A stretch of 58,510 nucleotides of DNA from the NCBI GenBank assembly GCA_019828565.1, contig JAHDYR010000050.1:1-58510 (forward strand), written 5' to 3'. The notes beneath the pieces are model-generated. The model was given only the letters and a program-made list of their open reading frames with translations, did not search any database and was not told where the DNA came from. The translations under genes were made by a program, and so were the position numbers. Below, in pieces: positions 4,822 through 58,460 of the stretch (positions are counted from its first letter, which is position 1; each line of letters begins with the position of its first letter). This stretch comes from Carpediemonas membranifera BICM. Lineage: Eukaryota > Protista > Fornicata.

Positions 4822-6010
4822 ATGGAAAAGACCCAAAAACGAGAAATCCTGATTGCAATTGCAAAAGAAGTATTCTACTTTCAACGCGATTGTGCTCAAG
4901 CCATGCCTGTTGCGGTTTCAGAGGTGTGCTGGGCTATTCTGCCAGATGATATCCGAGCTCTCTACAAGAAGAAGCAAGCGATGGCTTGTTCTCTTCGTCA
5001 TGCCCTTATCCACGCTCTGGATGGACTCGCCCCCCTCGTCTTACCAGATCAACACCGAGGGTAAGGTCAAGGGTGTGTTCCTCAAGGACTTCGGCGAGAT
5101 CAACCTATCAAGGCTGCAGGACAACCTGCAGGCAGCATCAGGTACCACTAGCACTGTGGTATGGCAGCCTCCGGTTTCGCGCTACATCAGCATCCCCTTC
5201 CAGACCTATTCGAAGAAGAAGGACAAGAGGGCTCGGAAACAGTCTCAACCCGCCCCTCAGTCGGTCGTAACTGTTCGTGACAATCTGGCCAGTGAACACA
5301 GACAGCGGGAAGCAGCGCACATCGACCAAGTCGCTTCCCAATTTTCCACATGTGTGGCGCAGGCAACGGCACTTATCCAGACAGGAATGAACCGGCGCCA
5401 CGCACTCGACAACTTCACTTATCAGCAGCTACGAAACTCATTGCGCATGTGTTGTGGGGTCTGTCACGATCCGATGAATCTGCTGCTGAAGATTGAGGAC
5501 GACAACTCCCTGCAGTGCCAACAATGCGAGAGGTACTTCCATTATAGCTGTGTCAGTGGCTACTTGGAGGAGCGAATGGCATACCCGGCATCTAACAGGG
5601 CCGATAAGCAGAAGATATCCATCTGCGATGACTGTAAGGCAATCAATGGTAACGACGAGTGCTTTCATCGTACACCTCCAACCGAGACCACCCAAGCAGC
5701 GGACTGTGGTAGAAGTATTAAGGATGGACCCAGCATGCTCTGCTACTTTTGTTCCAACTGGTTCTGTCCGGATCATATCGCGGACACCGTTTTTGACACT
5801 GGAACTGACATGTTGAAGCGTCCTTCTCGTCGTGTTCCGGTGTGCGTGAATTGCTTTCCTCGCATTCAGAGAGGCCAGCGACAGTTCAACGGTGAGTATA
5901 CCAACGCTGCCCGCGCTATTACAGAGCCATTGACACTCGCGGATGACGAGGCTCGTGATGATGTCAGTATCCGCGAGGAGGTGAGTGATGAGGAGGATGA
6001 CCAAGAGTGA
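4822..6010 (+). CDS. PHD-like zinc-finger protein (ORFs 4822..5064 and 4853..6010, probably one gene with a +1 shift at the C-run near 5030)
   Basis: CGVC...CQQCERYFHYSC...CDDC is a C4HC3 pattern, followed by a second Cys-rich finger and an acidic tail. Confidence 0.75.
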
Positions 6011-6325
6011 TAAGTGGAATAAAATGAACGAATGACTGATGCGGCACATTCTGTTTACGCTATACGACGATTTTTAGAGAGCGCCAGAGAGGTGCTGCAG
6101 GGAGAGAGCTTGTGCTTGCGTATCCTGAGGGATGCGGGATGGGAGGGGCCGACGTAATTGGCCAATCCACGTTTGTGGATCACCTGGTGTCGTCCATACC
6201 GGGCGTCTCTCCGCCACAGGCTGTGTTGCTGCGCATGGAAAGCAGTGTTAACTGTGTTCTATTGCACGATAGCACGGGGTTATTGACTGATGCGGCACCT
6301 ACCTTAAATTGCTCGTCATCCACAG

Positions 6326-7341
6326 TTGTGGATGGACCGATATCGCGCTAAGCATCGCCAAGCACCTCTCAAAGGGCAATCATCCGCTCGACAAGATCAT
6401 CACCTGTTCATTTCACCATGGAACGATGAGCAGCTCCGCATCCTTGGCGATAATGCGCGAGTTCTTCAGCTGCTCGCCATGATGGTCCCTTGGATGCGGA
6501 AGATCTTGGCCTCGCCTGCATTTAACCCCGGGTGCAAGCCCAATAGCACCGAGAAGGACCTCCTCGGCAAAGAGCTCGAACAGGACGTGGATTCATCAAG
6601 AATCCTTCGTGAGATGTCCAATCGAGCGGCGTACAACAAAGCCCATGCCAAGATCATTCGTGATCTCGTTGAGTACCGGAACCGCGCAGCTCACAATGAG
6701 CTTGAGCCCGACACCCTGCCCAAGGTCCTGGAGCTGGTCGAGAGCTTGGCCCAGGCCTTCTCGGTTCCATTGCACGATAACGTCAGGGCGTTCATCGCGC
6801 TGCTTAAGTCGCCAGTGTCGCTCGTTGCGACAAGTGAACATCATGCTCTGACGAAGAAGGTCAGCATTCTTGAGGATGAGATTGAGAGGCTGCGCGTAGC
6901 GGCGGCCGTAAGACCATGCTCAGGCTGCCAGGTGTCAGGTCTCAGCCGGAGCCCACCACTTTGGAGCAGGCAACGATGACGACTTCGGACGTCGGAGACC
7001 TGGATGAGCCGAGGCCCAGGCCCGAAGACACGGGCAAGACGCGCGGTACGCTCATGTCCCGCACACTGACTGCTAGCCAGGTGGACCAGCTAGCTATGGT
7101 TAGAACGCATGACCCCCCGCTTGTCCTGTCAGGACGTTGCATCGTGTGCGGGGGCTCATGCGAGACCTCAGAGTGGGCTTGCCGTCGTACCTCAACGACG
7201 ACACCCAAAGATCCTTGCCGAACGTTGATTCGGAAGGTTAAGATTGGGAATACTCGCGACGTCTCTGTCTACCTCACAGATGAGGCATTTGAGTGGGTCA
7301 AGCGTCGCGATCCGACAGGCAAGAGAGCGAGACAGGAATAA
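6326..7341 (+). CDS. HEPN-motif protein with C-terminal Zn ribbon (frameshifted copy; intact copy at 39792..40805)
   Basis: YRNRAAHN fits the RxxxxH HEPN motif in a helical domain; C-terminal GRCIVCG...C...C. Confidence 0.6.
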
Positions 7342-7362
7342 ATGAATGTATATGTGCATGTC

Positions 7363-7739
7363 TGGGCCTCAGCGCTGTCGTTCAGGCCAATCCACGTTTG
7401 TGGATCCGTGCAGTTTATGGCTTATCGACCGGACATCTCCTGAACTGAGCGCCAGGGGGCGGAGGTGGCGTTGGCGTGGGGCGTGGAGGCGCTGGGGGCG
7501 GGGGTGGCGTTGATATTGGGCAATTACATAAAGTGCACGGTGCTTGGAATTTCATTCCAACCTCAAAAATGGCGGGAAAGCATTATTGGAAGGAACTAGT
7601 GGCAGCTATGCGGTTCTTTATACTGCAAAAGCAACCAGCTGTCGTCAAAAAGCGCGCCATCTACCATCAATAACCAACATCTGCGTTGCACTCCACTGTT
7701 CTCGGTCGTTAATGCACAAAAATCACTAAAACAACATCA
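7363..7739 (+). repeat. About 375-bp intergenic dispersed repeat, copy 1
   Basis: Near-identical copies at 10649-11021, 12510-12885 and 14326-14701, inverted copies at 39398-39770 and 41431-41803, and a partial copy at 22625-22680. Confidence 0.95.
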
Positions 7740-7778
7740 GAAAGGAACAAAAGATAGATACTATAGACGTCCGTTTAC

Positions 7779-8507
7779 CTATTCAGCCAGGCGCAGGTAC
7801 TGACGCGCCGTCTCTCGGGCAGAAGATATACCATGGAGGGATGCGTTCTGGGCAAGGCGCTTGAACGACACAACGAACAGCGGAAGTCGCTCCCACTCTC
7901 CTTGGGCCCAGTAGTGATGGTCGTACTCGAGTGATAAATATTCGTAGGGGTGAATTGTTCGAACGCACACGAAGAAGAGAAGCGGGAGCAGTTTCGTCTC
8001 ATCAGCAGCAACACGAACAAGAACGTGACCAATGTGGCACTGCACATTGGTCACGACCGGGTTGTCGTTGATGCGATGGACACCGATTGTTTCAGGGTTG
8101 GCGCTGACGCAAAACTGGGTTCCATCGATGAGGTAGTCGTAGTTACCATTTGACTGGCGCTCATGGATGACCTCACCAGCATAGACACCGACCAGAGAAC
8201 CGACGTCGATTCGGTGCGACGAGATGACCCCTTGGCCAACATCGGTGCCCATGAGGGACTTCTGTGGCTCAAGAAGGATCCCATCTGCGGTCTTAGCGAT
8301 GCCGTTCTCAAGTAGTTCTTCGCCTGCATGCTCAGAGTCCGCCTTCTTGCCACCTGCACCGAGGAACTGCTCTCTATCCTCCTTAGAGAGCTTTTTCAGA
8401 GACATCAATTTCTCGTAATCATCTAAAAGACATTGTAATGTTCTCTCTTCCTCTGATCCATCTGTAGCAACATGCGGGATCATGATAGTGTGCATTCCTG
8501 TTGTCAC
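7779..8507 (-). CDS. Stand-alone SET-like domain protein
   Basis: GQGV...IDVGSLVGVYAGEV...HRINDN...RTIHPYEYLSLEY follows the SET motif order GxG, YxG, RFINHS-like, ELxFDY-like. Confidence 0.72.
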   Translation of the reverse strand: MTTGMHTIMIPHVATDGSEEERTLQCLLDDYEKLMSLKKLSKEDREQFLGAGGKKADSEHAGEELLENGIAKTADGILLEPQKSLMGTDVGQGVISSHRIDVGSLVGVYAGEVIHERQSNGNYDYLIDGTQFCVSANPETIGVHRINDNPVVTNVQCHIGHVLVRVAADETKLLPLLFFVCVRTIHPYEYLSLEYDHHYWAQGEWERLPLFVVSFKRLAQNASLHGISSARETARQYLRLAE

Positions 8508-8663
8508 TCACAATTGCGAAACTCGCTCTCTGTTCCATAACCTGCACATCGGATTTGAACGATGACGACAGACAGCCAACAGTGGATCGCATTTGAGCAT
8601 CTTGCGGCTCTATAAACCACTATAAAGCGTGGTAAGATAGAGACCGCAAGTCAATGCATCAAC

Positions 8664-9296
8664 ATGATCGAGGATTCCTGTGTGGAACGATTTGTGATGT
8701 TCTGGCTAACTACAGAGAACGCGGCGACGATTTACAACGAGAAAACGGCTGCTCTGCAGGAGAGCTATGGAGACGGAGTTGAGGACGACAACTCCCTGCA
8801 GTGCCAACAATGCGAGAGGTACTTCCATTATAGCTGTGTCAGTGGCTACTTGGAGGAGCGAATGGCATACCCGGCATCTAACAGGGCCGATAAGCAGAAG
8901 ATATCCATCTGCGATGACTGTAAGGCAATCAATGGTAACGACGAGTGCTTTCATCGTACACCTCCAACCGAGACCACCCAAGCAGCGGACTGTGGTAGAA
9001 GTATTAAGGATGGACCCAGCATGCTCTGCTACTTTTGTTCCAACTGGTTCTGTCCGGATCATATCGCGGACACCGTTTTTGACACTGGAACTGACATGTT
9101 GAAGCGTCCTTCTCGTCGTGTTCCGGTGTGCGTGAATTGCTTTCCTCGCATTCAGAGAGGCCAGCGACAGTTCAACGGTGAGTATACCAACGCTGCCCGC
9201 GCTATTACAGAGCCATTGACACTCGCGGATGACGAGGCTCGTGATGATGTCAGTATCCGCGAGGAGGTGAGTGATGAGGAGGATGACCAAGAGTGA
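8664..9296 (+). CDS. Chimeric ORF formed at the duplication junction (family-X N-terminus fused to PHD C-terminus)
   Basis: The first about 38 aa match the 11844 gene; the rest is identical to the C-terminus of 4853..6010. Confidence 0.7.
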   Translation: MIEDSCVERFVMFWLTTENAATIYNEKTAALQESYGDGVEDDNSLQCQQCERYFHYSCVSGYLEERMAYPASNRADKQKISICDDCKAINGNDECFHRTPPTETTQAADCGRSIKDGPSMLCYFCSNWFCPDHIADTVFDTGTDMLKRPSRRVPVCVNCFPRIQRGQRQFNGEYTNAARAITEPLTLADDEARDDVSIREEVSDEEDDQE

Positions 9297-9610
9297 TAAG
9301 TGGAATAAAATGAACGAATGACTGATGCGGCACATTCTGTTTACGCTATACGACGATTTTAGAGAGCGCCAGAGAGGTGCTGCAGGGAGAGAGCTTGTGC
9401 TTGCGTATCCTGAGGGATGCGGGATGGGAGGGGCCGACGTAATTGGCCAATCCACGTTTGTGGATCACCTGGTGTCGTCCATACCGGGCGTCTCTCCGCC
9501 ACAGGCTGTGTTGCTGCGCATGGAAAGCAGTGTTAACTGTGTTCTATTGCACGATAGCACGGGGTTATTGACTGATGCGGCACCTACCTTAAATTGCTCG
9601 TCATCCACAG

Positions 9611-10627
9611 TTGTGGATGGACCGATATCGCGCTAAGCATCGCCAAGCACCTCTCAAAGGGCAATCATCCGCTCGACAAGATCATCACCTGTTCATTTCA
9701 CCATGGAACGATGAGCAGCTCCGCATCCTTGGCGATAATGCGCGAGTTCTTCAGCTGCTCGCCATGATGGTCCCTTGGATGCGGAAGATCTTGGCCTCGC
9801 CTGCATTTAACCCCGGGTGCAAGCCCAATAGCACCGAGAAGGACCTCCTCGGCAAAGAGCTCGAACAGGACGTGGATTCATCAAGAATCCTTCGTGAGAT
9901 GTCCAATCGAGCGGCGTACAACAAAGCCCATGCCAAGATCATTCGTGATCTCGTTGAGTACCGGAACCGCGCAGCTCACAATGAGCTTGAGCCCGACACC
10001 CTGCCCAAGGTCCTGGAGCTGGTCGAGAGCTTGGCCCAGGCCTTCTCGGTTCCATTGCACGATAACGTCAGGGCGTTCATCGCGCTGCTTAAGTCGCCAG
10101 TGTCGCTCGTTGCGACAAGTGAACATCATGCTCTGACGAAGAAGGTCAGCATTCTTGAGGATGAGATTGAGAGGCTGCGCGTAGCGGCGGCCGTAAGACC
10201 ATGCTCAGGCTGCCAGGTGTCAGGTCTCAGCCGGTGCCCACCACTTTGGAGCAGGCAACGATGACGACTTCGGACGTCGGAGACCTGGATGAGCCGAGGC
10301 CCAGGCCCGAAGACACGGGCAAGACGCGCGGTACGCTCATGTCCCGCACACTGACTGCTAGCCAGGTGGACCAGCTAGCTATGGCCAGAACGCATGACCC
10401 CCCGCTTGTCCTGTCAGGACGTTGCATCGTGTGCGGGGGCTCATGCGAGACCTCAGAGTGGGCTTGCCGTCGTACCCTCAACGACGACACCCAAAGATCC
10501 TTGCCGAACGTTGATTCGGAAGGTTAAGATTGGGAATACTCGCGACGTCTCTGTCTACCTCACAGATGAGGCATTTGAGTGGGTCAAGCGTCGCGATCCG
10601 ACAGGCAAGAGAGCGAGACAGGAATAA
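9611..10627 (+). CDS. HEPN-motif/Zn-ribbon protein, duplicate copy (frameshifted)
   Basis: Near-identical to 6326..7341. Confidence 0.6.
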
Positions 10628-10648
10628 ATGAATGTATATGTGCATGTC

Positions 10649-11021
10649 TGGGCCTCAGCGCTGTCGTTCAGGCCAATCCACGTTTGTGGATCCGTGCAGT
10701 TTATGGCTTATCGACCGGACATCTCCTGAACTGAGCGCCAGGGGGCGGAGGTGGCGTTGGCGTGGGGCGTGGAGGCGCTGGGGGCGGGGGTGGCGTTGAT
10801 ATTGGGCAATTACATAAAGTGCACGGTGCTTGGAATTTCATTCCAACCTCAAAATGGCGGGAAAGCATTATTGGAAGGAACTAGTGGCAGCTATGCGGTT
10901 CTTTATACTGCAAAAGCAACCAGCTGTCGTCAAAAGCGCGCCATCTACCATCAATAACCAACATCTGCGTTGCACTCCACTGTTCTCGGTCGTTAATGCA
11001 CAAAATCACTAAACAACATCA
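10649..11021 (+). repeat. About 375-bp intergenic repeat, copy 2
   Basis: Near-identical to 7363-7739. Confidence 0.95.
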
Positions 11022-11060
11022 GAAAGGAACAAAAGATAGATACTATAGACGTCCGTTTAC

Positions 11061-11789
11061 CTATTCAGCCAGGCGCAGGTACTGACGCGCCGTCTCTCGG
11101 GCAGAAGATATACCATGGAGGGATGCGTTCTGGGCAAGGCGCTTGAACGACACAACGAACAGCGGAAGTCGCTCCCACTCTCCTTGGGCCCAGTAGTGAT
11201 GGTCGTACTCGAGTGATAAATATTCGTAGGGGTGAATTGTTCGAACGCACACGAAGAAGAGAAGCGGGAGCAGTTTCGTCTCATCAGCAGCAACACGAAT
11301 AAGAACGTGACCAATGTGGCACTGCACATTGGTCACGACCGGGTTGTCGTTGATGCGATGGACACCGATTGTTTCAGGGTTGGCGCTGACGCAAAACTGG
11401 GTTCCATCGATGAGGTAGTCGTAGTTACCATTTGACTGGCGCTCATGGATGACCTCACCAGCATAGACACCGACCAGAGAACCGACGTCGATTCGGTGCG
11501 ACGAGATGACCCCTTGGCCAACATCGGTGCCCATGAGGGACTTCTGTGGCTCAAGAAGGATCCCATCTGCGGTCTTAGCGATGCCGTTCTCAAGTAGTTC
11601 TTCGCCTGCATGCTCAGAGTCCGCCTTCTTGCCACCTGCACCGAGGAACTGCTCTCTATCCTCCTTAGAGAGCTTTTTCAGAGACATCAATTTCTCGTAA
11701 TCATCTAAAAGACATTGTAATGTTCTCTCTTCCTCTGATCCATCTGTAGCAACATGCGGGATCATGATAGTGTGCATTCCTGTTGTCAC
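11061..11789 (-). CDS. SET-like domain protein, duplicate copy
   Basis: One amino-acid difference from 7779..8507. Confidence 0.72.
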   Translation of the reverse strand: MTTGMHTIMIPHVATDGSEEERTLQCLLDDYEKLMSLKKLSKEDREQFLGAGGKKADSEHAGEELLENGIAKTADGILLEPQKSLMGTDVGQGVISSHRIDVGSLVGVYAGEVIHERQSNGNYDYLIDGTQFCVSANPETIGVHRINDNPVVTNVQCHIGHVLIRVAADETKLLPLLFFVCVRTIHPYEYLSLEYDHHYWAQGEWERLPLFVVSFKRLAQNASLHGISSARETARQYLRLAE

Positions 11790-11843
11790 TCACAATTGCG
11801 AAACTCGCTCTCTGTTCCATAACCTGCACATCGGATTTGAACG

Positions 11844-12447
11844 ATGACGACAGACAGCCAACAGTGGATCGCATTTGAGCATCTTGCGGCTCTATACACC
11901 ACTATAAAGCGTGGTAAGATAGAGACCGCAAGTCAATGCATCAACATGATCGAGGATTCCTGTGTGGAACGATTTGTGATGTTCTGGCTAACTACAGAGA
12001 ACGCGGCGACGATTTTACAACGAGAAAACGGCTGCTCTGCAGGAGAGCTATGGAGACGGAGTTGTGCGGTGCTCGGGTACGGACAGCATCACGAGAACAA
12101 TATCATCTTCCTCTCGTGGTGTCGAGCATGTATCGAGCATTGAGCGAGCATCAAGCGTCATGCAGCGTCACTTGGAGTTCCTGCATTGGGGCAAGATCGC
12201 CCTTTCCTGTAGCGGCAGGACGCTAGCTGACTTTGCGACTCAGCACTTCCCCTTCCGTGTCTCTGATATTGAACGCAAGATTGTCTTCGTGATGGTCACC
12301 GTTCCCAATGAGTTCATGGTTTGGTATAAGGCGCTTGTTGACGAGAAGATCGATGAAGAAGAGTTTACCTACTACATCATTTATCGTCTTAACTCCAGCG
12401 CGAAGGATCACATGGTTGTTAATGCCCTAACCTTCAAATATGAATGA
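11844..12447 (+). CDS. Unknown protein, family X (frameshift at T-run near 12014); paralog of 30342..30950
   Basis: FRVSDIERKIVFVMVTVPNEFMVWYKALV..IDEEEF aligns with VRLSIFDRYAIYVAKKAPSLYASWVESLL..TSIEEL. Confidence 0.55.
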
Positions 12448-12509
12448 TCAGAGAGAGTGATGTGGTTAAATGGATTGAAAATGAGTCTTTTTAATGTCTC
12501 ACCACCTGT

Positions 12510-12885
12510 TTGGGCCTCAGCGCTGTCGTTCAGGCCAATCCACGTTTGTGGATCCGTGCAGTTTATGGCTTATCGACCGGACATCTCCTGAACTGAGCGC
12601 CAGGGGGCGGAGGTGGCGTTGGCGTGGGGCGTGGAGGCGCTGGGGGCGGGGGTGGCGTTGATATTGGGCAATTACATAAAGTGCACGGTGCTTGGAATTT
12701 CATTCCAACCTCAAAATGGCGGGAAAGCATTATTGGAAGGAACTAGTGGCAGCTATGCGGTTCTTTATACTGCAAAAGCAACCAGCTGTCGTCAAAAAGC
12801 GCGCCATCTACCATCAATAACCAACATCTGCGTTGCACTCCACTGTTCTCGGTCGTTAATGCACAAAAATCACTAAACAACATCA
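12510..12885 (+). repeat. About 375-bp intergenic repeat, copy 3
   Basis: Near-identical to 7363-7739. Confidence 0.95.
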
Positions 12886-13430
12886 AAAGGACTGTTCATA
12901 CGTTATTAAACATTGCTTGCTACTTCTGTTTCATCTTATTGTCGTTTACAGCTGTGTTGTCCTCAACAAATGCCAAGACAGATCAACGAGGCGTTCGCGG
13001 CTTCCCGTTGAAGACTTGCCATTGCCAGAGAGAGTGCCATGCCTGGCACGTCTCTCTTCTTGTCTGCCGCGTGAAGGAATCGACCAGGCTGGATTCATGT
13101 GCAGCTTATGCAGCAATGGACACTCTGGAGTCAGAACTGCATTTGCAGCAGCTTCTTGCTGCTATTGAGCTTACTTGTGGCCCTGTCCCATCAGAAAGAA
13201 ACAACAGACAGGCCCGAAAGATCGCCGCGGTCATTTCTGGTGAGTTTGACAGAGCATTCGACCGTTTCTTGCGCGATCTCTTCGCCGACAGCCCGTCTAT
13301 CATGAAGAGCTAGATCTCCTGGCGGAGATTCCCCAAGAGCCCATTGAAGATGTGCCTGTCGCGGTAGGAGAAACCGCCAAGCCTGCATCCAAGCTTCAGC
13401 CCAAGACCACCAAGTCCTGCGAAGAAGAAG

Positions 13431-14285
13431 GTGCAGACAAAGAAGCTGAGACAGCTGGCGCCGCGACGCGCTGGTACGCCTGCCCCGACACAACAGCAGG
13501 TCATCGTACCACTCAAGAACCTCAGCCGCCAGGAAGAGACAAGCCTTGAAACGTGGATTCGCAGCGTGCCGAAAAACTCTGCCATTACCATCGATATCTC
13601 TGGGATGGATGGTTTCAACGCCAGTGAGTCGACCCTTCACGAGCTGGAACACTCATTCCAGGAGAACAACGTCCGAGTTATTCGGGCCTGGATTGCTTAC
13701 CAGCTTTGTCTCTACGACTGTTTGTCAAGCCAGAAGATTAAGTATAACGAAAACGTGGCCCCCAGCGACGCCCTGCTCTCAGTGGCTCTTCAGCAGCAGA
13801 GGATCTTTGTCCAGGCGAACAAGCAAGGTGCACTTTCCACACGCCTTAACATAACGAAGACCCCCTTCTACAACAACGTTGTGGAGCGTCTGAAACTGAT
13901 GGGTGAGACAGAAAGCATGATGTCAAAGTTCCACAACATCATTGGTGTCATCATCATCCACTTCGCCGACTTCACTTCCTTGCTGAAGAACCGAATGATC
14001 CCGAAGGATAACGATACAGTCAGGGGCTTGAGCACCCTCATTGTTCACAGTCATCTGTGCATGGTTTACTCAACGGCGAAAGATATCCGTCCTGAGATCT
14101 ACAATGCTCTGACGACAAGCAGTACATTCCCGCCAGACCTTATGGCGTTTGCAAGAATGGCATTTGGTCTCGGACAAACCGCGGCGGTGACCCATGAGTC
14201 GCCCGAAAAGCAGAAGCATGCGGACAACACAATAGAGGATGATTCAGAGATCGAGACAAGTGGTAAGAGGGTGAGGACTGAGTAA
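13431..14285 (+). CDS. Unknown protein, family Y; paralog of 28266..29531 (true start probably upstream)
   Basis: ITKTPFY...LMG / IHFADF...MIP align with ITNPFY...GMG / VHPEHF...IIP. Basic NLS-like C-terminus (KRVR). Confidence 0.65.
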   Translation: MQTKKLRQLAPRRAGTPAPTQQQVIVPLKNLSRQEETSLETWIRSVPKNSAITIDISGMDGFNASESTLHELEHSFQENNVRVIRAWIAYQLCLYDCLSSQKIKYNENVAPSDALLSVALQQQRIFVQANKQGALSTRLNITKTPFYNNVVERLKLMGETESMMSKFHNIIGVIIIHFADFTSLLKNRMIPKDNDTVRGLSTLIVHSHLCMVYSTAKDIRPEIYNALTTSSTFPPDLMAFARMAFGLGQTAAVTHESPEKQKHADNTIEDDSEIETSGKRVRTE

Positions 14286-14325
14286 ATGGATTGCAAATGA
14301 GTCTTTTTAATGTCTCACCACCTGT

Positions 14326-14701
14326 TTGGGCCTCAGCGCTGTCGTTCAGGCCAATCCACGTTTGTGGATCCGTGCAGTTTATGGCTTATCGACCGGACAT
14401 CTCCTGAACTGAGCGCCAGGGGGGCGGAGGTGGCGTTGGCGTGGGGCGTGGAGGCGCTGGGGGCGGGGGTGGCGTTGATATTGGGCAATTACATAAAGTG
14501 CACGGTGCTTGGAATTTCATTCCAACCTCAAAAATGGCGGGAAAGCATTATTGGAAGGAACTAGTGGCAGCTATGCGGTTCTTTATACTGCAAAAGCAAC
14601 CAGCTGTCGTCAAAAGCGCGCCATCTACCATCAATAACCAACATCTGCGTTGCACTCCACTGTTCTCGGTCGTTAATGCACAAAATCACTAAACAACATC
14701 A
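14326..14701 (+). repeat. About 375-bp intergenic repeat, copy 4
   Basis: Near-identical to 7363-7739. Confidence 0.95.
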
Positions 14702-14860
14702 AAAGGACTGTTCATACGTTATTAAACATTGCTTGCTACTTCTGTTACATCTCCTTAGGACATTTACTTCTGATTCTGTTTCTGCTCTCTCTTCTCCAGC
14801 ACCTCTGCCATCTCGAGACCTGTCAGCAGCATTGATCTCATTCCTGCATCACAGAAAGTA

Positions 14861-16395: not shown

Positions 16396-16397
16396 TT

Positions 16398-18854: not shown

Positions 18855-18928
18855 TAGATGATCTTCTCGAAGTCACGCATTTTTAGGATTTTTAGAATCT
18901 TTAGAATTCTTGAAAGAGCGACTGACAG

Positions 18929-48815: not shown

Positions 48816-48890
48816 CATACTGTCCAGGGTTCAGGAATTTCCCTTATTGGGTAGGGGAATTTCCTCGGGGGAAAGCCCGAGGAAATTCCC
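48816..48890 (+). repeat. Terminal repeat of element 3
   Basis: catactgtccagggttcaggaatttccc...ggggaatttcctcgggggaaagcccgaggaaattccc, including a 15-bp perfect stem. Confidence 0.75.
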
Positions 48891-48979
48891 TAGCATTTCG
48901 ACTCGGTAAGAAAAAAAATAAATCAACAACGAGCTGTATTCATAATCTATAAATGAGGTTGAATACATGCCTACACATG

Positions 48980-49180
48980 AGGACTACTCATGCGTAGTTT
49001 TGAGCTTTAAATCCTGCTAGAAAAAAGTAACATAGGGACAATTATTCCTTGGGAGTTCAGACTCAAAAATCGGGCTGGGGGGAGGAAATGGTCCATAAGT
49101 ACGCCTTATGGGTCGCTTCCTCCTCTCTGCCCTTTTTTATTGACTTCTGATTTGCCAGATTTGACACATGTTCGAGGTGA
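48980..49180. repeat. Subterminal block, diverged inverted homolog of about 33995-34200
   Basis: Shared strings such as ctttaaatcctgctagaaaaaagtaacatagggacaa and ggaggaaatggtccataagtacgcc. Confidence 0.88.
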
Positions 49181-49308
49181 GTCTTAGATTACTCAAAATG
49201 GCCTCCTGATTCAGCAGATAGACTCAAAATTTCACAATTCGTACTCAAAACCAATTTCAACAGACGTCTGTTGCAAAATCTGCCAAAAACGCACTTTAAA
49301 AGTCATTT

Positions 49309-50583
49309 TTGCAACAGACGTCTGTGGAAATGGTCTTTAAGCTCTCCGCTGCCGATTTGACGCAACTACACAAGACTAACTACAGTAATACGTACATTGC
49401 CGACATTAGCGGGGTCAAAACTGTCGTCAAGGTCGATAACTGTATGACACTTCGCCTGACACACGAAAAGACGATACTTCAGGCAATGAAAAGCCCATTT
49501 ATTGTTACAATCGTCGATGTGGGCTTTGTTGACAGCGATCAAGCGTTTGCCACTCGCTTTGTTGACCATATGTCGTGGCGAGACGTTCTGGCACTACCAG
49601 TACCGGATCAATGTCGCTACTTGCGGCACTTACTGTTAGCTCTCAGCCATGTGCATGAGAATGGATTCATCCACGGCGACATCAAGCCCGACAACTACCT
49701 TTTCAACCGAGAAGACGGTGGATTACTCATTGACTTCGGCTCTGCCATCAAAATAGAGGCTCCTACTGGGATTAACAGGTATATGGGACAAGACATGAGA
49801 GGGACACCTGGTTTTATCCCCCCCGAGCTTCGTGCCGACGAACTCAGTCGGAAATCGAAGCATTGTACAGTAGCTATGCGGGAACCACAGAATTTGAACC
49901 CCTTCCAGGCTTCCAGGAACACCACAACCAGAAACACCAACATGCACACAGTTGATGCGGCATACGACATCTTTTCCTGCGGCGTTATCGTCCTCATGAT
50001 GGCATTGCGACTGGATAAGTCTCCATTTCGATCTGTGAGAGTGGATGGTGGCAAGCCAAGTAACCCAGACGAGCATATTGGCGCTCTATATAACATGGCG
50101 TACTTCTACGGCCGCGAAATCACGATACACAGCAAGAAGAAGAATGCAGCCCGTGGTTTGATGATCAATCCGACTCTCTGCACGAGAGGAAGCCCTCCGA
50201 CACAGTATAGGAGCCTTTATGACCTTGCAATGGGGATGCTCAGCTATAATCCGGAGGATAGACCAACAGCTTTGATGTGCGCTGAACATCTCAACGATAT
50301 CGCCGCCCTAGCAGCAACGTTCGCATCAACACCACTGATGATCAACGACCAGGTGACAATCTCTCAGGAAACGCTCGCTGCCGCCAAACTCACCGTTGAA
50401 GCACTTCGAGAAACCCGATTTGCTGGCCGATGCATTGCATGTGGCATGCCGGTTCACGATAATCGAACAATAACTTGCAAGACACACCACCAAGATTACA
50501 GAAGCATCATGAACCCCCACACAAAGAGAAGAGGACGAGTTTGGAGGGTTCATCGTGATCTATCATTGATTATTGATATGTAA
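49309..50583 (+). CDS. Ser/Thr protein kinase (non-RD) with C-terminal Zn ribbon; paralog of 14861..16162 (likely ATG 49330)
   Basis: VVK, HGDIKPDN, DFG, GTPGFIPPE, YDIFSCG; GRCIACG...CKTH. Confidence 0.93.
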   Translation: MQQTSVEMVFKLSAADLTQLHKTNYSNTYIADISGVKTVVKVDNCMTLRLTHEKTILQAMKSPFIVTIVDVGFVDSDQAFATRFVDHMSWRDVLALPVPDQCRYLRHLLLALSHVHENGFIHGDIKPDNYLFNREDGGLLIDFGSAIKIEAPTGINRYMGQDMRGTPGFIPPELRADELSRKSKHCTVAMREPQNLNPFQASRNTTTRNTNMHTVDAAYDIFSCGVIVLMMALRLDKSPFRSVRVDGGKPSNPDEHIGALYNMAYFYGREITIHSKKKNAARGLMINPTLCTRGSPPTQYRSLYDLAMGMLSYNPEDRPTALMCAEHLNDIAALAATFASTPLMINDQVTISQETLAAAKLTVEALRETRFAGRCIACGMPVHDNRTITCKTHHQDYRSIMNPHTKRRGRVWRVHRDLSLIIDM

Positions 50584-51030
50584 CCGCCCAGTATCGAATC
50601 ACCTCACTACCATGGGATGATCGCATTCACCTTCAAAGAAAGAGATGAGGCCGCATACTCGACCAGATATAAAGGAGATATGCTGCAGCCTTGAAAAGAA
50701 AGAAAGAAAGAAAGAAATTTATGGTGCTTGGATTCTGACCCCGGACTGAGCTTGTTTCCCGTGCTGCAGCCTTGCGCTGGCTTTATAGACAATACCCAGT
50801 TGTTTACACTAAAACCGAAAAATCAGTCCAGTAGACGCTCGAATCGAACTGGAGTGGGGTGGCTGTGATACAGTGTTCGTTCCTGTAGTACCCAGGCAGA
50901 AGACCCGACCGGACGATATGGCCTGGAACTCTACCGGCAAAAAGCAGCTGGCGGCCGCTGAGGAATATGTGGAAGGCGCTTCCAGAATGATCTTTACACT
51001 ACTTTCTTTGCTTCTATCTTGTACTTACTG

Positions 51031-52710
51031 TTAATCACTCTCATCATCTTTTTGTCTACTTGTGGATGACGGAGCGCCTTCCTGTATTTGCGCTTTTCTT
51101 TTGATACCCTCTGGGAGACTGACAAGTTCCGCATGGTCGTCCTGGAGCAGAATAAAGTGGGTAATGCCATGTCTGGAACAGAACACCTGGAAATTCTCAC
51201 AACGATCAGCAGCTGAGTCGCCAGAAGGGTACAAACCCCAAAACTGGTGACCATGTGTGAACAATATCACTGTAGAATTATTACCGTTGTTGCACACCAT
51301 GATGACATTACGCATGTAGATCATGGAAAACTCTCGCACAGCATCATCGGTAAGCCAGCCCATCTTGGAAAACAGTTCTGCCTTAGCGGAATCCTCCGTC
51401 AGAGCCGTCCGCTTCACCCGGCTTTCCACCAGCTCGGCACGCAAAGCCATGGCTGCCTCAAGATCTGTTCTGTGGGTCAGGGTGGTCATATCCCGGAAAT
51501 GGCCGTCCCTAATCATGCAACAGCAGTGCGCAACACAGCTGCCATCACGGTGTGTCGAGTATTTCCTCCATGACTTCAACCCATTCACAATTTCCTCAAC
51601 GAAGGACTGTGGCTGACCGCTGGTGCCGATTGGAATCTCTTTCTTCTCAATCATATTGTTGATGTGAGACTCAATGGCCACAGATGACTCGTGTTCAGAC
51701 TTGATCAAGAGCAGAGAGCGAAAGTCGACGATCTTAGCAGTGGAATCGAAGTTCGGGTACGCAGGCCGGTAAACCTTGTTAAGCAAAGGATAACAACGCG
51801 GCGGGAGTCTTGCGTCTTCCTCCGATACGATCTTCGCTTTTGCACAACCGTCAGGTCTTGCGATAATGACTCTTCGCTTCATGTACGAGAGCTTGGACAT
51901 CCAGAACCAGAATTGCGCGATCTCATGGAGGTGATCTGGCTGAGTCATGATTCTGATGAGCCACGTGGCGTCATGGGCGGCAAGTTCGACGGCGGGTAGC
52001 TCATCTGGTGTCAAAAGCACCACACACCGTTGCATTGTGAACTTGAACTTGCCAGAATACAACTGAAAGATCGGCCGTGGGTCACGGGCGGAAGACTGGC
52101 AGGCGGCAATATACACACCCATGATTCGGGCGAACTTGCAGACATGACTCTCATAATTCTTCAGAATTGCCTCGATGAAGTCGAAGGCAGTTGTCCAGAT
52201 GGCTGGTATCGTGCGGGCATCGACCACAAACCGACCATCAGAGTCCGAGTGACCAGTGATAATGAAAAAAGTCTCATAGTCACCATACAGCTTGCCGAAT
52301 TCCTTGATTTTCGCCTCAAAATCGTCCTCGTTCTCGAACTGGGCCGTCTCGATAACCGTATACTCGCTATGCATTGCCGCAAAGATCTGACGAATGCGTT
52401 CTGCGTGCCCTCCAATGGAGACAGATTCATCAATCGAAAACTGCCTGCTATCTCCAGCAACGAACCCATAGGTTGGCTCGAACACGATGAGGACACGTGT
52501 ATTCTTCAGCGCCAGTGCAGTACGGGTGCACTTGTGACGTCGGGATGGCGAGGGAAAACCGACGTTGCGTGTTTCGCTACTGATGTCCCCACAGACACAT
52601 TCAAACAGCTTTGATCCATCCAGATATCGATTTCTCCACCCCATTGCATTGAAAAATGTCTGATCGTCGTTCATGACGCCAATGCCAAATTGAGGGTGAG
52701 AAAATGGCAT
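51031..52710 (-). CDS. Putative caspase-like (clan CD) protease fused to an OTU-like protease
   Basis: FFIITGHS and GVYIAACQ give a His-Cys dyad after hydrophobic strands; C-terminal RDGSCVAH...GWLT...DDHAEL. Confidence 0.58.
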   Translation of the reverse strand: MPFSHPQFGIGVMNDDQTFFNAMGWRNRYLDGSKLFECVCGDISSETRNVGFPSPSRRHKCTRTALALKNTRVLIVFEPTYGFVAGDSRQFSIDESVSIGGHAERIRQIFAAMHSEYTVIETAQFENEDDFEAKIKEFGKLYGDYETFFIITGHSDSDGRFVVDARTIPAIWTTAFDFIEAILKNYESHVCKFARIMGVYIAACQSSARDPRPIFQLYSGKFKFTMQRCVVLLTPDELPAVELAAHDATWLIRIMTQPDHLHEIAQFWFWMSKLSYMKRRVIIARPDGCAKAKIVSEEDARLPPRCYPLLNKVYRPAYPNFDSTAKIVDFRSLLLIKSEHESSVAIESHINNMIEKKEIPIGTSGQPQSFVEEIVNGLKSWRKYSTHRDGSCVAHCCCMIRDGHFRDMTTLTHRTDLEAAMALRAELVESRVKRTALTEDSAKAELFSKMGWLTDDAVREFSMIYMRNVIMVCNNGNNSTVILFTHGHQFWGLYPSGDSAADRCENFQVFCSRHGITHFILLQDDHAELVSLPEGIKRKAQIQEGAPSSTSRQKDDESD

Positions 52711-52771
52711 CGCACTTTAAAGCAGCTTTATGTGAGAAATGTATTGCATATAATTCTGCATTCAGAAGACG

Positions 52772-53314
52772 ATGGCTAGAACAAAGCAAACGGCTCGCCG
52801 GCCTACGCAAGGTGGAAAGGCGCCTCGCAAGCAGTTAGCAGCGATAGCTGCGCGGAGAGCGAATACTTCGTCGTACCGCACCTACAAGCCGTTGTCTCAG
52901 GCCGCGTTGGAGAATTGCACGGCAGTCCTGCAAAAGGCTGATGCTGATATCCAAGAAACTATTCTGTCGTGCATCAAGAAGACGGAGGCGCACAACTTCA
53001 AGCAGATGGTCAAGAATTCAACACGAGCTGGTTTCCGACTTGCATTCAACACTGAGTCCGAGTCTGTCCACATGAACCCATCGAGGAAGGACGAGGTGGC
53101 AGCGCGGGCAGAAGCTGCTTACCAATCAGCGCTGCATGCCTTCCGCAGCGTTGACCCTGAGACTGCTGCGACAGAAGATATGAAGACACTGCTTGACACC
53201 TTAGCGGTTGCTCTTGACGCAACGCCAGATGTGCCACATGCTCGCCTGGATCCTGAAGAACAGCGTCGGTTCCTGAAGCTGAAGGATACGTACATAAAGG
53301 TTAAAACAGTTTAA
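52772..53314 (+). CDS. Histone H3 N-terminal tail mimic fused to an unrelated helical domain
   Basis: [29 protein letters not shown] vs H3 [28 protein letters not shown]. No histone-fold motifs follow. Confidence 0.88.
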   Translation: [180 protein letters not shown]

Positions 53315-54209
53315 GGAACTCGTCCAACGTCTTCGCATTGTGCGTCATGGCCACCTTGTCCTTCTTCGTCAACCTCGATTTGGTACCCTTTCTCTTCACA
53401 GTCGTCTTCTTCTTCTTAGAAGGCTCCCAGCTCCCATTGGCGCATGCTTTTCTTAGCTTCTTCTGCTCTAATCTGTACTTCTCCTCCTCCGTCATGTCTG
53501 CTTCCTTTTTCTTTGCCTTCGCCTTCTTCTTCGACTTCATTACATCTAACTTCTTCGCCTTCTCTGCATCCTCCTGGACCACGCGAGAAATTGAGTGCTT
53601 CACGTCCTTCGGTACATCACGATTCCTCGCATGCTTAACCACGACAAAGACATTATCGTCAGTGCCGCCACCTTCAAGGATGACCTTGTCCTTTGGGATC
53701 TTGCTGGTGGCAACCAAGAAGCAGATCGGCTTCTTATCCACCTTGAATAGGGCAAACCTGCAGTTGCCAGCAGCCGAATGATGGCAAAGCTTGTTGACGC
53801 ATGCTTCATCAGGAGTCATGAGGTGCAGCTGTGACGATAGCTGAATCCGAGAAGGCTGATCGCTAAGAACACCCTTGGCAATCCCGAGCACTTCTCCCTC
53901 ATCAACATCGCCAGCCGTGACCAAACCATACATCATGTCATCGCCCTTTGACACCATGCATGTGCTGCACTTCAGAGAAATGAGCGATTGGCCGTCAAGC
54001 TCGACAATTTGGTCATCATCGAAAGGCAAGGCGTCTATCTTCATCGCGGCTTCGCCCATGTCCGCCCAATTTGCATAGACACGACGCGCAAGCTCTTCCG
54101 GAAAGCAATCGCAGCAAAAGTTGACAGTTCCACTTTCTTGCTGCATTCTACGCAGTTTATACCAGCAGTTTATACGCAGCAATGACACAGCACCAAGAGC
54201 GTGGCACAC
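53301..54209 (-). CDS. Divergent SET-like domain with Lys-rich C-terminal tail
   Basis: YGLVTAGDVDEGEVLG..KG...LCHHS..GNC...LVATSKIPKD. The terminal ELxFDY motif is absent. Confidence 0.6.
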   Translation of the reverse strand: MCHALGAVSLLRINCWYKLRRMQQESGTVNFCCDCFPEELARRVYANWADMGEAAMKIDALPFDDDQIVELDGQSLISLKCSTCMVSKGDDMMYGLVTAGDVDEGEVLGIAKGVLSDQPSRIQLSSQLHLMTPDEACVNKLCHHSAAGNCRFALFKVDKKPICFLVATSKIPKDKVILEGGGTDDNVFVVVKHARNRDVPKDVKHSISRVVQEDAEKAKKLDVMKSKKKAKAKKKEADMTEEEKYRLEQKKLRKACANGSWEPSKKKKTTVKRKGTKSRLTKKDKVAMTHNAKTLDEFLKLF

Positions 54210-54299
54210 AACCCTTCAATGACCCATGTAAGGTTGGGTGGGTCTTATGTCAGGCTGTTTCTTTTCAATCATTTCAATCATATCCTGCACAGACTTCGT

Positions 54300-55005
54300 T
54301 GATGAAGAAGTTCTGCTATGACGAAGCCGGCTTGTCGCGACGAGAACTGGGCCATAGAACTGAAATCGGCATCCGAATATCGCGGCACGCATGGGTATTT
54401 ACCCCCAGAAATGTTCAAAGTGTGTTCGTGTTCGGTCATTCCGCCGTCAACGAGCGCCATACGAGACCTCCAAGCATACGCGCATGACTGCATCGGCTCT
54501 TCCCGCCTGTTCTTCATGTCGTCACACCTGCCTCCGACATTTACTCGTGCGGTGTAGTCATTGCTCTTTTACGGTCTCCCCAAGTCCCCCTTTGCCGCGA
54601 AGGTGACTGACATGGCGCAGATCGACAACAAGAAGAAGAATAAGATGCTGAAGCTTGGTAGCTTGCTGAACTGGTGCCACTTCTATGGTGGGCAGTTGCA
54701 GTTGTCACGTAAGACACTCGAACCGCTCAGAGATTGTCTCAACTTCGTGAACGTGAACTCTGCACTACCGATTCGCGGCACAACGCCACCCACTTGCCTC
54801 GGAATGTACGACCTGGCAATGCAGATGCTCCACTTCGACCCAACGAAGCGTCCCACTGCTGCCGAATGTCTTGACAAGCTCAAGGTCATCATGCGCGTGC
54901 ATGAATGCGTCGCCAAGCCGAGTCCGCTTCTGTTAGATGACACTGAACAGGTCTTACTCTCTGTAGATCAGCGAAAGAGAATGGTCGACTGCTGCCAACT
55001 GGGGG
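54300..55005 (+). pseudogene. Kinase pseudogene closely related to 14861..16162
   Basis: ASEYRGTHGYLPPE and LGSLLNWC...RPTAAECLDKLK are near-identical; 5'-truncated and frameshifted. Confidence 0.88.
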
Positions 55006-56397
55006 TCCTGGAGGAAAAGTTTAGAGATGCGATTCGAAAGGGTCGTAGCATTGAACTCGAAACCATGAGTCCTAAGAACACCGGCGCATGCCCAACACTC
55101 ACCCCGGTGGGGCCTGGCCGTGGTTTGAACATATACCGACACATAACTGGGTAAATACGTAAATGTTGTGCGAAAATTGCGTCTTGTTCTGCACAGAGCG
55201 ATGACGAAACTAAAAACGGAACAAGAAGAGGCCTGAAGATTTAACTGCCCGGCGGTGCAGGTTCGTCAAGTGGCCGGAGATGCCGCTTCCAGTAAGGTGT
55301 ATGCCGTACAGCTCGCCGTATCCATCTCCGTGCCCGTCTCCATCCCCCACTCCGCCTTCAACGCCAGCCCCCCGCCACGCCTGTTGTAAGTCCGCCTCCA
55401 TCTCCTGTCCGCAGTTCACCACCGAGTCTCGAAATCGAATCACCTCACTACCATGATTCCCCGCAATACCATGATGTATGTGATGACCATTAAACGATCT
55501 CCTTCTATACAATGACTTCTGAAGCCGTCCGACCAACGGCACAGAACGGTTTATAGCATGCATATGATCCATTCTGGTGCCTTTATCCTCTATAACCAAC
55601 ATCAGTCCATCAAAAATGAATCTTGCAACAGAATACTCATCCACACGCATCGAGAACGAAAAAGAAGCATATAACCAACATCAACAACCTAATAGAAGGC
55701 TGCATGCAAGCGTAGAGCTCTCCTAGTCGATTCTTCAATTTATCAAGCATCAATCTCCACGTCAGGATGAAACTGTGCGCCCAAAAGCTCAGAGATGCCG
55801 TTATAGATGATATAACGACGTCTCTGAGCTTTTCAGCGATGTCAGTTTCTGGCCACGTCCAAGTTCGGCTCTGCGAAAATAACAGTGCATTGCACTATAA
55901 GTCATACATTTGGAATACAGCAATGCACTGTTATTTTCGCCAAAACCACGCTGACCTACCATTGTCCATGGGCTTGACGGGGGTGATCTTCTCGGCTTGG
56001 ATTTGGCTGAAACTTGGTATATGTGTAGTATTTGATATGTTAGGACGGATCCAAGATTTTTTTACATATCGTTCGAGTCTATTTACCGAGATATACGTAA
56101 AGCAAAATTAGGGTTGAGTCTATTCTGGCTGAAAAGCGGTATGGTGGGTTCTCTGACTGTCTGAACACGGCTCCAGAAGTTTTACGTGATGAATTGGCAT
56201 ATTTATATTGCTTTGCGTAAACAGAAAATTTTGACAGTACCTACAATCAACTACCTGCATATACATGCTATAAACATGCTTAAAATGCCTTCAGTCGTAC
56301 GTGCTATATACTAAAGCTCTTCCTGCATCTTATTTCGAAAGAACAAAATATTCACTCTGAAAATAACACTGCATTGCTGTGAAATTTTTGGAAAAAG

Positions 56398-58013
56398 ATG
56401 CTAGATATCACTATTCTACGCAGCTGGATTCGTGAGCATCATGAGAAGACCGTTAGGATTGCTTCTGCTGCACCTGGTCAAGAGCGTAAGGCTATTCGAG
56501 CAGATAAGAGTATGTTCGAGAGATGGTTCGCACTCCGGACGAATAAGAGCCGCTTGGAGCACCTCAAGGAGCACAAAGTGATAACGAAGACAGCCCTGAG
56601 ATGCGCGCTGGTCGATAACATCGTCATTGACGAGATTCGTGATGTGTTTGGTCTCGCTGGCCGAGTTTCACTAATGGATCTCATCAACAAGGCTTCCCTT
56701 CCCGAGCTCATGGCCATTAGTGACGACCTTGCCCGGCCCGAGCTGTCTAAGGTTCCTGCAGGCTTGTTTATGGAGGATGATCAGGTTGAAATCGTGCGGA
56801 AGCAGTTTTTGACCACTACACCGGATCAGCGATCACCTTTGAGGATAACCGCGAGGCTGTCATGCCGTCACATCGTGGCTCTATTCATCTAGAAGGAACA
56901 GGCCGTCTCTTTCTTCCAGATCAAGTCAACCTGATCCTTCGCGCTCTCTTCGTCGCCCCTGAGGGCACTGTCGAGGCCCGCCGCGTGCATTCCCCTACGA
57001 GGACATTCTTTCTGGTTGCAAGAATGATCCGGGAAGCGATGTGACATCAGCCCAGCTTGAGCGGTTGCGTCGAGATGTTGCCAAGGCAGCCGCCGAAGCT
57101 ATTCAGGCAAGGAATGACCGCGAGGAAGCCATACACTCGCTTGAACTCGTTACTGCATCCTATGCGCAAGATACAGGGCATGCATATGTGACACCACCCG
57201 CCAGCGACGCCGTGGAATTTTCCGACACTGACGAGGACGAGTCCGATGGCCACGCTGAACCGGCCGCCATGCAGGGTGACGGCGTTCCTTTGCCCCAGAC
57301 TGATCAAGACGTCGAAGTAGAGTCCGATGTGGACGACACAGACACCGTTGGTCTCCAGACGGTTTACGATGTTGATGCAGAGGCCGATCATGACGTCCGC
57401 GAGCCAGTGTCCCTGCTTAATCACAGCTTAGCACAGCTAGACGACACCATTGCAGGCCTTGATGATGTACCCGAGTCTGTGCGCTTGTTGGAGCAGTACG
57501 AGCCCCTTGATGAAACGGCTTGCTGAGGAGAGGGAGGCGAGGGAGGCGCTTGAACAGGCTAACAGAGATTCTGAGGAGTCCCAGAAGAGACTAGAAGCTG
57601 AGTTAGGTCAGCAGAAGGGCGAGGATCAGGCGATCCATCAGTTTACTCAAGCAGAGTTGGCACGCGCGAGTGAGGCTGGGCTTGAAGCACTCGCCGATGA
57701 ACTCGAAGACAACTGGGCGGAGCTTATCAGGCGCGCCGAGGAGGCAACAATCGAGCTTGACCGCTACGTTGCTCTCGCTGCCTTGATGGAACTGTTCCAG
57801 AGGAACAATGTGGCTGGAGCTTTGTGGACTCGGATCAATAGCACCATGATGAGGTACGGGGGCCAGAAGTTCATAACGGTCCCACCCCTAGACCTCGGTC
57901 TTACGCCTGAGATGAAGGCTATCATCGCACAGCACTCTCGAGAGAAGAAGACAAAAGCTCGTGTAACACAGGGAGAGAAGCTGGAGTTTCCCCTGGAAGG
58001 GCGTTCATGCTAG
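56398..58013 (+). CDS. Run of overlapping unknown ORFs (56398..56892, 56862..57044, 57041..57526, 57450..58013), acidic and coiled-coil
   Basis: Contiguous same-strand ORFs; no domain recognised. Confidence 0.4.
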
Positions 58014-58082
58014 TGGAGCAGTTGAAGTAAATGGGCACGGCGACAGGGGCGGAACAAGCAACCGCGAAATAGAGATATCAGG

Positions 58083-58460
58083 TCATCCCTGACATTGTAT
58101 GGCGAGAACTGTTCTCAGTCTCCGCTTTGGGAGCTCTAAGATCAGTCTGAGATGAGTTACAGATGTCCACACGGTATTCGTCAAACTGAGCACTTCTCCA
58201 AATGAAATGTACTCGTGCTGCTTTAATGAGTCTTTGTTGTAGTCATAAACATAAGCAGCACCAATTGCCTTCATTTTGCCTGTTTCTGCCATTATTGATC
58301 TGCATATTGATTCCAAGCGACTATCTAAACAAAAGCGGCTTTGAATTTCTTCAACAATGCCAATTCCGCGCATAATGTCCGATGAAATGCTGACCACTTG
58401 TGATGCAGCTCCCTCAGGCGTTTCTAGATGTGGTTTCATTGGTTTCATTCTCAGTGACAC
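58083..58460 (-). CDS. Small unknown protein, paralog of 17142..17348
   Basis: Shared IQS..DSRL..I..SI..ET.K..AIG pattern. Confidence 0.55.
   Translation of the reverse strand: MSLRMKPMKPHLETPEGAASQVVSISSDIMRGIGIVEEIQSRFCLDSRLESICRSIMAETGKMKAIGAAYVYDYNKDSLKQHEYISFGEVLSLTNTVWTSVTHLRLILELPKRRLRTVLAIQCQG

Follow-up and report, generated by a model that had tools for sequence, protein, structure and literature searches.

The window analysed here is the whole 58,510-nucleotide stretch (positions 1 to 58,510, forward strand) of contig JAHDYR010000050.1 of Carpediemonas membranifera BICM, a free-living fornicate protist. Comparison of the window with itself revealed three cut-and-paste transposons with CAT(A/G)CTG ends, named E1, E2 and E3, and this study concerns the candidate chromatin- and ubiquitin-related genes that they carry. 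E1 (4308-45662; ends CATGCTG...CAGCATG) has imperfect terminal inverted repeats of about 69 bp (85% identity) and encloses E2 as well as internal duplications. E2 (16398-34355), nested in E1, has 75-bp terminal inverted repeats starting with CATACTG (98.7% identity) and is inserted in the 3′ end of the gene read from 35528. E3 (48816-58510) was recognised by its left end, CATACTG, and interrupts a Rep gene; its second end is inferred to lie beyond the window. A subterminal block of E3 (48964-49180) is 82% identical to one of E2 (33998-34218).

The open reading frames (ORFs) of the initial annotation were all present, and seven of its 21 coordinates (8507, 54209, 40805, 49309, 38588, 13431 and 58460) fall on GTG or TTG codons instead of ATG. 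Genes with a PHD finger and a FYVE-like zinc finger lie in E1 (4822-6010, plus strand; frameshift near 5032; partial copy at 8616-9296) and E2 (17618-18854, minus; frameshift near 18360). SET-domain genes were found in E1 (7779-8495, minus; second copy at 11061-11777) and E2 (27668-28327, minus), and a distant SET-like gene in E3 (53301-54146, minus). A protein kinase joined to a zinc domain is encoded in E1 (14861-16162, minus), where the catalytic motifs are intact, and in E3 (49330-50583, plus), which also holds a broken kinase of the E1 type (54306-55154). HEPN-like genes with a C-terminal zinc domain are present in E1 (39792-40799, minus; frameshifted copies from 6332 and 9617) and E2 (31647-32587, plus; frameshift near 32013). 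OTU-like genes occur once in E2 (22943-24540, minus) and twice in E1 (36717-38451, plus, frameshift near 36837; 38588-39213, plus, frameshift near 38810, start unsure). In E3 an OTU-like domain forms the C-terminus of a fusion gene (51031-52710, minus), beside a histone H3 tail mimic (52772-53314, plus) that places about 30 tail residues on a non-histone body. The remaining sets are family X (E1, 11844-12447, plus, frameshift near 12013; E2, 30342-31179, plus), family Y (E1, 13431-14285, plus, first ATG at 13605; E2, 28266-29531, plus), a small family (E2, 17142-17348, plus; E3, 58083-58448, minus) and two genes labelled YR-like (E1, 34356-35528, minus, broken near its end by E2; E2, 32617-33279, minus). 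The eight frameshifted genes were translated with an X at the break.

Profile searches bore out the SET, OTU, PHD and kinase labels that had been given to these genes. A SET profile to which members from foreign elements (described below) were added matched EHMT1 (E value 1.5e-7), and Pfam SET was matched by the E2 gene (2.3e-5) and the E3 gene (0.019). The OTU profile, extended in the same way, matched OTUD3 (3.8e-4), with Asp-x-x-Cys and His kept, and the language-model clusters nearest to the OTU domain consist mostly of giant-virus proteins (0.92). Both PHD and FYVE fingers were matched by the extended PHD-FYVE profile; the C4HC3 ligands of the PHD finger align in four members, and Pfam PHD recognised the E1 gene at 6.6e-6, above the cut-off, and the E2 gene at 0.085. 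Among solved structures, the kinase matched Greatwall (6e-13) ahead of CDC7 (3e-12). The HEPN label stayed weak, with Pfam scores below the cut-off (E 0.011-0.022) and the RxxxxH motif kept in both genes. Cross-family support for the zinc domain common to the kinase and HEPN genes is likewise weak (E 0.036-0.4).

The N-terminal part of the 52710 product belongs to a family in which a Gly-His and a Cys are invariant in all four members. Caspase/CHAT-like proteases carry a Gly-His and then Cys dyad on successive strands, and we take the spacing in this His-Cys family to resemble the caspase dyad. Pfam, NCBIfam and PDB searches gave no match for the family and no relative was found in viral contigs; the single-sequence model of the 52710 product was poor (predicted local distance difference test, pLDDT, 33.5) and its fold search came back empty. 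Residues 1-30 of the 52772 ORF match the H3 tail (E 4e-7) with K4, K14 and K18 kept and Arg at the K9 and K27 positions, in a comparison with an H3 other than the host's own. Its non-histone body had no match in Pfam. A predicted complex of the PHD finger with this mimic, computed without an alignment, scored 0.00, which is evidence neither way. The end of the E2 family-X gene (30946-31080) looks chromodomain-like by eye and has no Pfam match.

The initial annotation had grouped the cargo into nine sets of diverged paralogs, and shuffle tests (500 shuffles per pair locally; 1000 end to end, with 20 control pairs) upheld eight of them at least in part. The kinase pair was clearest (Z 109, 140/439 identical residues), followed by SET 8507/28327 (Z 31), HEPN (Z 19), the small family (Z 19), OTU 38588/52710 (Z 13), OTU 24540/38588 (Z 8) and PHD (Z 7.6), none of which was equalled in 500 shuffles; the N-terminal halves of the PHD genes do not align. 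Families X and Y were marginal locally (3/500 and 1/500) and stood out end to end (Z 4.7 and 5.6, 0/1000, controls at most Z 1.8). Within the SET set, 54209 is weakly similar to 8507 and 28327 (27/500 and 3/500), and direct alignment of OTU 24540 with 52710 was insignificant (28/500). The OTU genes 24540 and 36717 are diverged in their N-terminal halves only, as 903 bp of their 3′ parts, including the OTU domain, are 99.6% identical. The YR-like set fell: 33279 and 35528 do not align (Z -0.3 local, 0.7 global). Hidden Markov model searches of both gave no match, and the R-K-H-R-H-Y catalytic set could not be recognised by eye; the label of 33279 found no support here. For 35528 a language-model lead points to integrase N-terminal domains (0.96 to integrase-type clusters).

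The transposase of E1 (42080-44644, plus) is intact, and its 854 amino acids are 99.9% identical to J8273_6817 of C. membranifera. D339, D422, H521 and E687/E691 are conserved, and the family, with 21 accessioned members in the clusters looked up, shows conserved W-x-D, D-H/N, PPxMH and EExxE blocks. No Pfam transposase family was named for nine close and 47 further relatives, and no relative was found in viral contigs. A structure model of modest quality (mean pLDDT 48, core higher) gave RAG1 as best Foldseek match (E 2e-5). With a second aligner, RAG1 scored Z 11.6 (root-mean-square deviation 5.6 over 353 residues), the P element Z 11.3 and Transib Z 9.2, and the next unrelated row 6.5. The transposase is predicted from this model to have a fold like those of RAG1, the P element and Transib. 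E2 had a different transposase type, of which a 5′ remnant is left (18929-19639, plus; 99.6% identical to P0004 over its residues 1-237), which ends at the start of a Gypsy-type fragment. This fragment (19640-22158) contains reverse transcriptase, RNase H, integrase and chromodomain parts and lies within the E2 transposase.

A first metagenome scan returned nothing. A scan with five distant transposases yielded seven loci from one other assembly (L001 to L007), three of which had enough flank for several cargo genes. The transposases of E1, the E2 type, L002, L005 and L006 are 28-32% identical in nine of ten pairs and sat on separate branches of a quick tree. Profiles built from the window only, searched against 1572 frame segments of window and loci, found four SET, two PHD, two OTU and one kinase ORF in the foreign loci (E 4e-12 to 6e-5), and the His-Cys family has three foreign members (5e-42 to 2e-25). 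L006 is a complete element of 11.6 kb (2171-13799) with 74-bp CATACTG repeats, a GC duplication and Gypsy pol on both sides; it carries a transposase, OTU, the His-Cys family, one unknown ORF, SET and PHD. L002 holds PHD, kinase-Zn, an ORF with an H3-like start, OTU, SET and the His-Cys family, and L005 two SETs, a GNAT acetyltransferase (1454-2101) and the His-Cys family. The start of the L002 ORF has seven of nine H3 residues, the sole other Met start of 1009 that reaches seven. An RCC1-repeat ORF (896-2368) also lies among the L002 cargo. An unnamed family adjoins the transposase in L002 (8987-9802), L003 (426-1259) and L006 (6612-7181, fused to OTU); membership of the E3 ORF at 56398 in this family, as represented in L002 and L003, was rejected, as was homology of the H3-mimic body to ORFs of L002, L005 and L006 (Z at most 2.4).

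Both termini read 5′-CA..TG-3′ in E1, E2 and L006, and a single end was seen in E3, L001, L004 and L007. L001 and L004 terminate in CAGCATG, the same end as E1, at two different junctions. Two of the three two-ended elements have a 2-bp target duplication, TT in E2 and GC in L006. The insertions observed all hit mobile DNA: E2 in E1, E3 in the Rep gene, and L006 and L001 in Gypsy pol.

These data speak to two earlier claims, that the families belong to the elements and are not ordinary host genes, and that they reflect long-term selection. Confinement to elements was examined by accession adjacency and in the seven foreign loci. For four of the eight annotated kinase loci of C. membranifera, a listed transposase is no more than three accession numbers away (P 3e-6); of the others, one adjoins a Y gene and three have no listed neighbour, the transposase list being incomplete. 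On a 46-kb contig, two transposases are found 5-7 locus tags away from the E2-type SET gene J8273_7652. Searches with the kinase and SET genes brought up no host donor and nothing beyond near-identical copies in C. membranifera. Together with the occurrence of the families beside foreign transposases of 28-30% identity, and inside the terminal repeats of the complete L006, this supports an element-borne cargo. Agreement at four-fold degenerate sites is only 0.15-0.39 in nine of 11 pairs, whose proteins are 30-39% identical. Because silent sites are randomised and the proteins kept, the cargo is old and selected, not randomly captured, a view that recurrence beside distant transposases also favours. 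Ratios of nonsynonymous to synonymous change (dN/dS) by counting were 0.17-0.60 for eight diverged pairs and undefined for PHD; they are rough, given saturation and protein-guided alignment.

Several features of the flanks and intergenic regions were recorded. Arrays of a 278-bp unit flank E1 at 620-4309 (13.2 copies) and 45661-46899 (4.3 copies); TGTCA closes one and opens the other, and each has two bases in common with the E1 end. With a gag-like ORF at 198-521 the arrays may represent a long terminal repeat (LTR). No target duplication was found at the ends of E1, which therefore may occupy an LTR junction or be a recombinant. A short ORF remnant at 46900-47233, by eye like the end of a non-LTR retrotransposon endonuclease, ends in (CTTAC)6 and cuts the second array. 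Between this tail and the Rep gene lies a 150-bp fragment of family Y (47277-47428), 93% identical to the E2 gene and the only cargo piece in the window outside all element ends. The Rep gene broken by E3 (48099-48815) is geminivirus-like (Pfam Gemini_AL1 plus helicase); four unexpressed Rep genes have been described in the host genome (PMC8516963). A 388-bp intergenic repeat is present in six copies of 98-100% identity (7359-7746, 10645-11028, 12507-12891, 14323-14707, 39392-39774 and 41425-41807) at the breakpoints of the E1 internal duplications, and L006 has three copies of a 45-56 bp intergenic repeat. The intergenic repeats of E1 and L006 could possibly be a common gene-end signal or binding site. 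Tandem arrays of 40 bp with inverted copies, duplicated and expanded, occupy the region between the Y and X genes of E2 (25767-27253 and 29879-30058). Most elements contain intergenic imperfect palindromes of 50-135 bp, unrelated in sequence between elements (window, 16639-16774, 26201-26289 and 55783-55940; L006, 8230-8359 and 13180-13283; L005, 202-288; L003, 222-329; L007, 526-580). Three E3 ORFs at 56398-58013 (164, 187 and 183 amino acids) were left without assignment. Exact database look-ups gave no match for 13 of 14 window ORFs and an Rfam search none for the window; no sequencing runs matching 48816-58510 were listed, which is uninformative on expression.

From the make-up of the kit, with a reader, three kinds of writer, an eraser and a tail mimic without the repressive lysines, we infer an anti-silencing function. 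Transposons of RAG1/Transib fold would carry an old, selected accessory set that keeps element chromatin open, its proteins acting against host silencing, a reading that we consider plausible though just short of probable. The PHD finger would bind histone tails at the element, and the marks written by SET, kinase and, in L005, GNAT would counter or hide those that repress. OTU might remove ubiquitin from histones or element proteins, and the H3-tail protein, which keeps K4 and has no lysine at K9 or K27, could act as a decoy or docking tail. Targeting of the kinase and HEPN proteins to element DNA may be a function of their common C-terminal zinc domain. Recombination would swap cassettes between elements, since the OTU end common to E1 and E2 is 99.6% identical. 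DNMT1 and DNMT3B are unlisted in the available rows of the host supplement (PMC8516963), so any silencing contest would probably take place at the histone level. A fuller version is more tentative: a previously undescribed fornicate RAG1-fold lineage with a full virus-style chromatin-control operon for histone-level counter-silencing, maintained and reshuffled from a time when its transposases were still more than 30% identical. We are equally tentative about its proposed parts taken jointly, a reader, methyl, acetyl and phosphate writers, a ubiquitin eraser, a clipping protease, a K4-only H3 decoy and targeting by the zinc domain.

A number of observations weigh against an anti-silencing kit. 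The nearest solved matches of the SET family are silencing-type H3K9 methyltransferases, and because these relatives write H3K9 methylation, a simple activating role of SET is disfavoured; the substrate itself is not readable at this evolutionary distance. The terminal catalytic Tyr is present in six of seven SET members and missing, with its C-terminal motif, from the E3 gene. The NH motif of SET domains binds the cofactor, and its position reads ND in five of seven members, NS in one and is divergent in E3. The best solved match of the FYVE-like finger is a membrane-trafficking protein. The L002 H3-like start has no PDB match and the body of that ORF does not align with that of E3. Half of the eight kinase loci have no listed transposase close by. 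The HEPN, X, Y, small and YR-like families were found in none of the seven foreign loci, and the kit is thus not fixed. Family Y (dN/dS 0.96, weak alignment) and the recently duplicated OTU block (1.0, from 13 differences) give ratios near 1, and the broken kinase gives 0.55.

The frameshifts in eight window genes may also be a sign that these copies are in decay. Runs of at least five bases coincide with six of the eight breaks, against a background of 3.9%, although the breaks were placed partly by those runs. In three near-identical, partly overlapping copy pairs we counted 15 indels and 16 substitutions, and 12 of the indels lie beside runs of at least four bases. As the indels of near-identical copies cluster beside base runs, long-read error is suggested, with decay as the alternative; the assembly used MinION R9.4 reads (PMC8516963). 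Introns were judged a less likely cause of the breaks than single-base indels.

Random capture of host gene pieces in the manner of Pack-MULEs, followed by drift, would account for the frameshifts and fragments in the window, the Y fragment outside the element ends and the RCC1-like ORF of L002. It is largely refuted by the recurrence of the same families beside transposases only 28-30% identical, and saturated silent sites, the lack of a host donor and indels that look like read errors leave it highly improbable. The cargo may instead serve transposition, with kinase, OTU and protease tuning repair, replication timing and transposase turnover, and PHD and chromodomain-like readers steering insertion, all with no anti-silencing. 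In its favour, CDC7 ranks high among the solved structures that match the kinase, E2, E3, L006 and L001 are inserted in other mobile DNA, and OTU and Ulp1 on Ginger transposases have been proposed to act in repair (PMC2836005). The kinase match is not specific to CDC7, however, and the host owns a Cdc7 (J8273_0055; PMC8516963); SET, GNAT and the H3-tail mimic would be left without a clear job. We regard this explanation as unlikely, yet one to be taken seriously, and the kinase, OTU, HEPN and protease-like families taken singly fit repair, cell-cycle or conflict roles equally well.

Such a conflict or addiction system would have a HEPN RNase and a caspase-like protease as toxins, the other proteins as antidotes or as weapons turned on viruses or rival elements, and SET proteins that silence competitors. 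The RxxxxH motif kept in both HEPN-like genes, the Gly-His and Cys invariant in four of four protease-like members and the closeness of SET to H3K9 writers would suit it. Against it, HEPN is absent from all seven foreign loci, the complete element L006 among them, its identification in the window is weak and no database match backs the protease assignment; we hold this explanation to be quite improbable. We give slightly less credence still to a fusion between a transposon and a large DNA virus or Polinton-like element as the source of the cargo, which would mean virus-style host takeover and not element-specific anti-silencing. Dense, apparently intronless genes on both strands, the giant-virus clusters near OTU and the YR-like lead point that way. 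Among the 30 window and 19 locus ORFs scanned, though, there was no capsid, packaging ATPase or polymerase, neither the transposase nor the protease-like family had a relative in viral contigs, and the taxa of a language-model atlas do not show origin.

The element family was compared with known transposons as described in the sources cited. The CMCT clade comprises EnSpm/CACTA, Mirage, Chapaev, Transib, Plavaka and ESTA (Kojima 2025, PMC12730594). Our elements are similar in their RAG1-like-fold DDE transposase, CA..TG ends and 2-bp duplication, within the 2-5 bp of CMCT. The C(2)C pattern between the second D and E is absent, there being no cysteine pair; some relatives have one Cys in this region and the window protein none. 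The histidines of the block PPxMHxSH are spaced H(2)H in place of H(3-4)H, and some relatives lack the second one. Because these two patterns differ, we call the family CMCT-like and do not file it as a member. Transib has CAC termini and a 5-bp duplication, in contrast to the CAT termini and 2-bp duplication here. PlavakaB, with CATCA..TGATG ends and a 2-3 bp duplication, differs from the CAT(A/G)CTG termini, and there was no Plavaka match in Pfam. Fungal CMCT members carry a TET/JBP accessory gene with a proposed role in silencing escape (PMC12730594), one DNA dioxygenase gene in contrast to five to ten accessory genes with histone and ubiquitin domains.

Other parallels concern the cargo. 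To our knowledge, there are few proven cases of transposons that counter silencing, each with one protein acting against DNA methylation. In Arabidopsis, VANDAL elements also have non-transposase proteins that diverged between families and internal non-coding repeats (PMC5735166). The E2 40-bp arrays recall the VANC target repeats. VANC is one DNA-binding protein with a proven effect against DNA methylation, whereas our elements, known from sequence, have several enzyme-like genes in a host without listed DNMT1/3B. OTU and PHD domains occur on the DNA transposons Ginger1, Mutator and Helitron (PMC2836005, PMC6431247). There OTU, Ulp1 and PHD come singly, for the most part as fusions with the transposase; in our elements OTU and PHD have genes of their own, in the company of SET, kinase, GNAT and the H3-tail mimic. 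Purifying selection acts on a zinc-finger/kinase accessory ORF of the TBE elements of Oxytricha, which are likewise DNA transposons of a protist, but they have a Tc1/mariner transposase and three ORFs in about 4 kb, and SET, OTU and PHD are unreported in the parts of PMC4724952 consulted. CACTA-type EnSpm elements of 16-20 kb in Chondrus crispus, compared by description only, are similar in size and have several extra ORFs, for which the available part of the citing paper gives no chromatin functions (PMC6431247). In the literature covered, which included few subscription papers and was without Repbase, there was no report of this transposon family or of a multi-gene kit with an H3-tail mimic. 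In the host paper repeats were masked ahead of gene prediction, "transpos" occurs nowhere in its text or searchable supplements, and its review file promises repeats for later reporting (PMC8516963). The precedents cover single parts; what appears new is the multi-gene chromatin kit on a DNA transposon, with its function as proposed above.

With this transposase, a protist branch joins the neighbourhood of the RAG1/Transib fold, and the kit proteins, as small independent domains, lend themselves to direct assay. If the anti-silencing reading is true, a cut-and-paste element would manipulate chromatin as large viruses do, by a histone-directed kit of several enzymes and an H3-tail mimic. The marks by which DNA is silenced in a metamonad without listed DNMT1 and DNMT3B would then be revealed as well.

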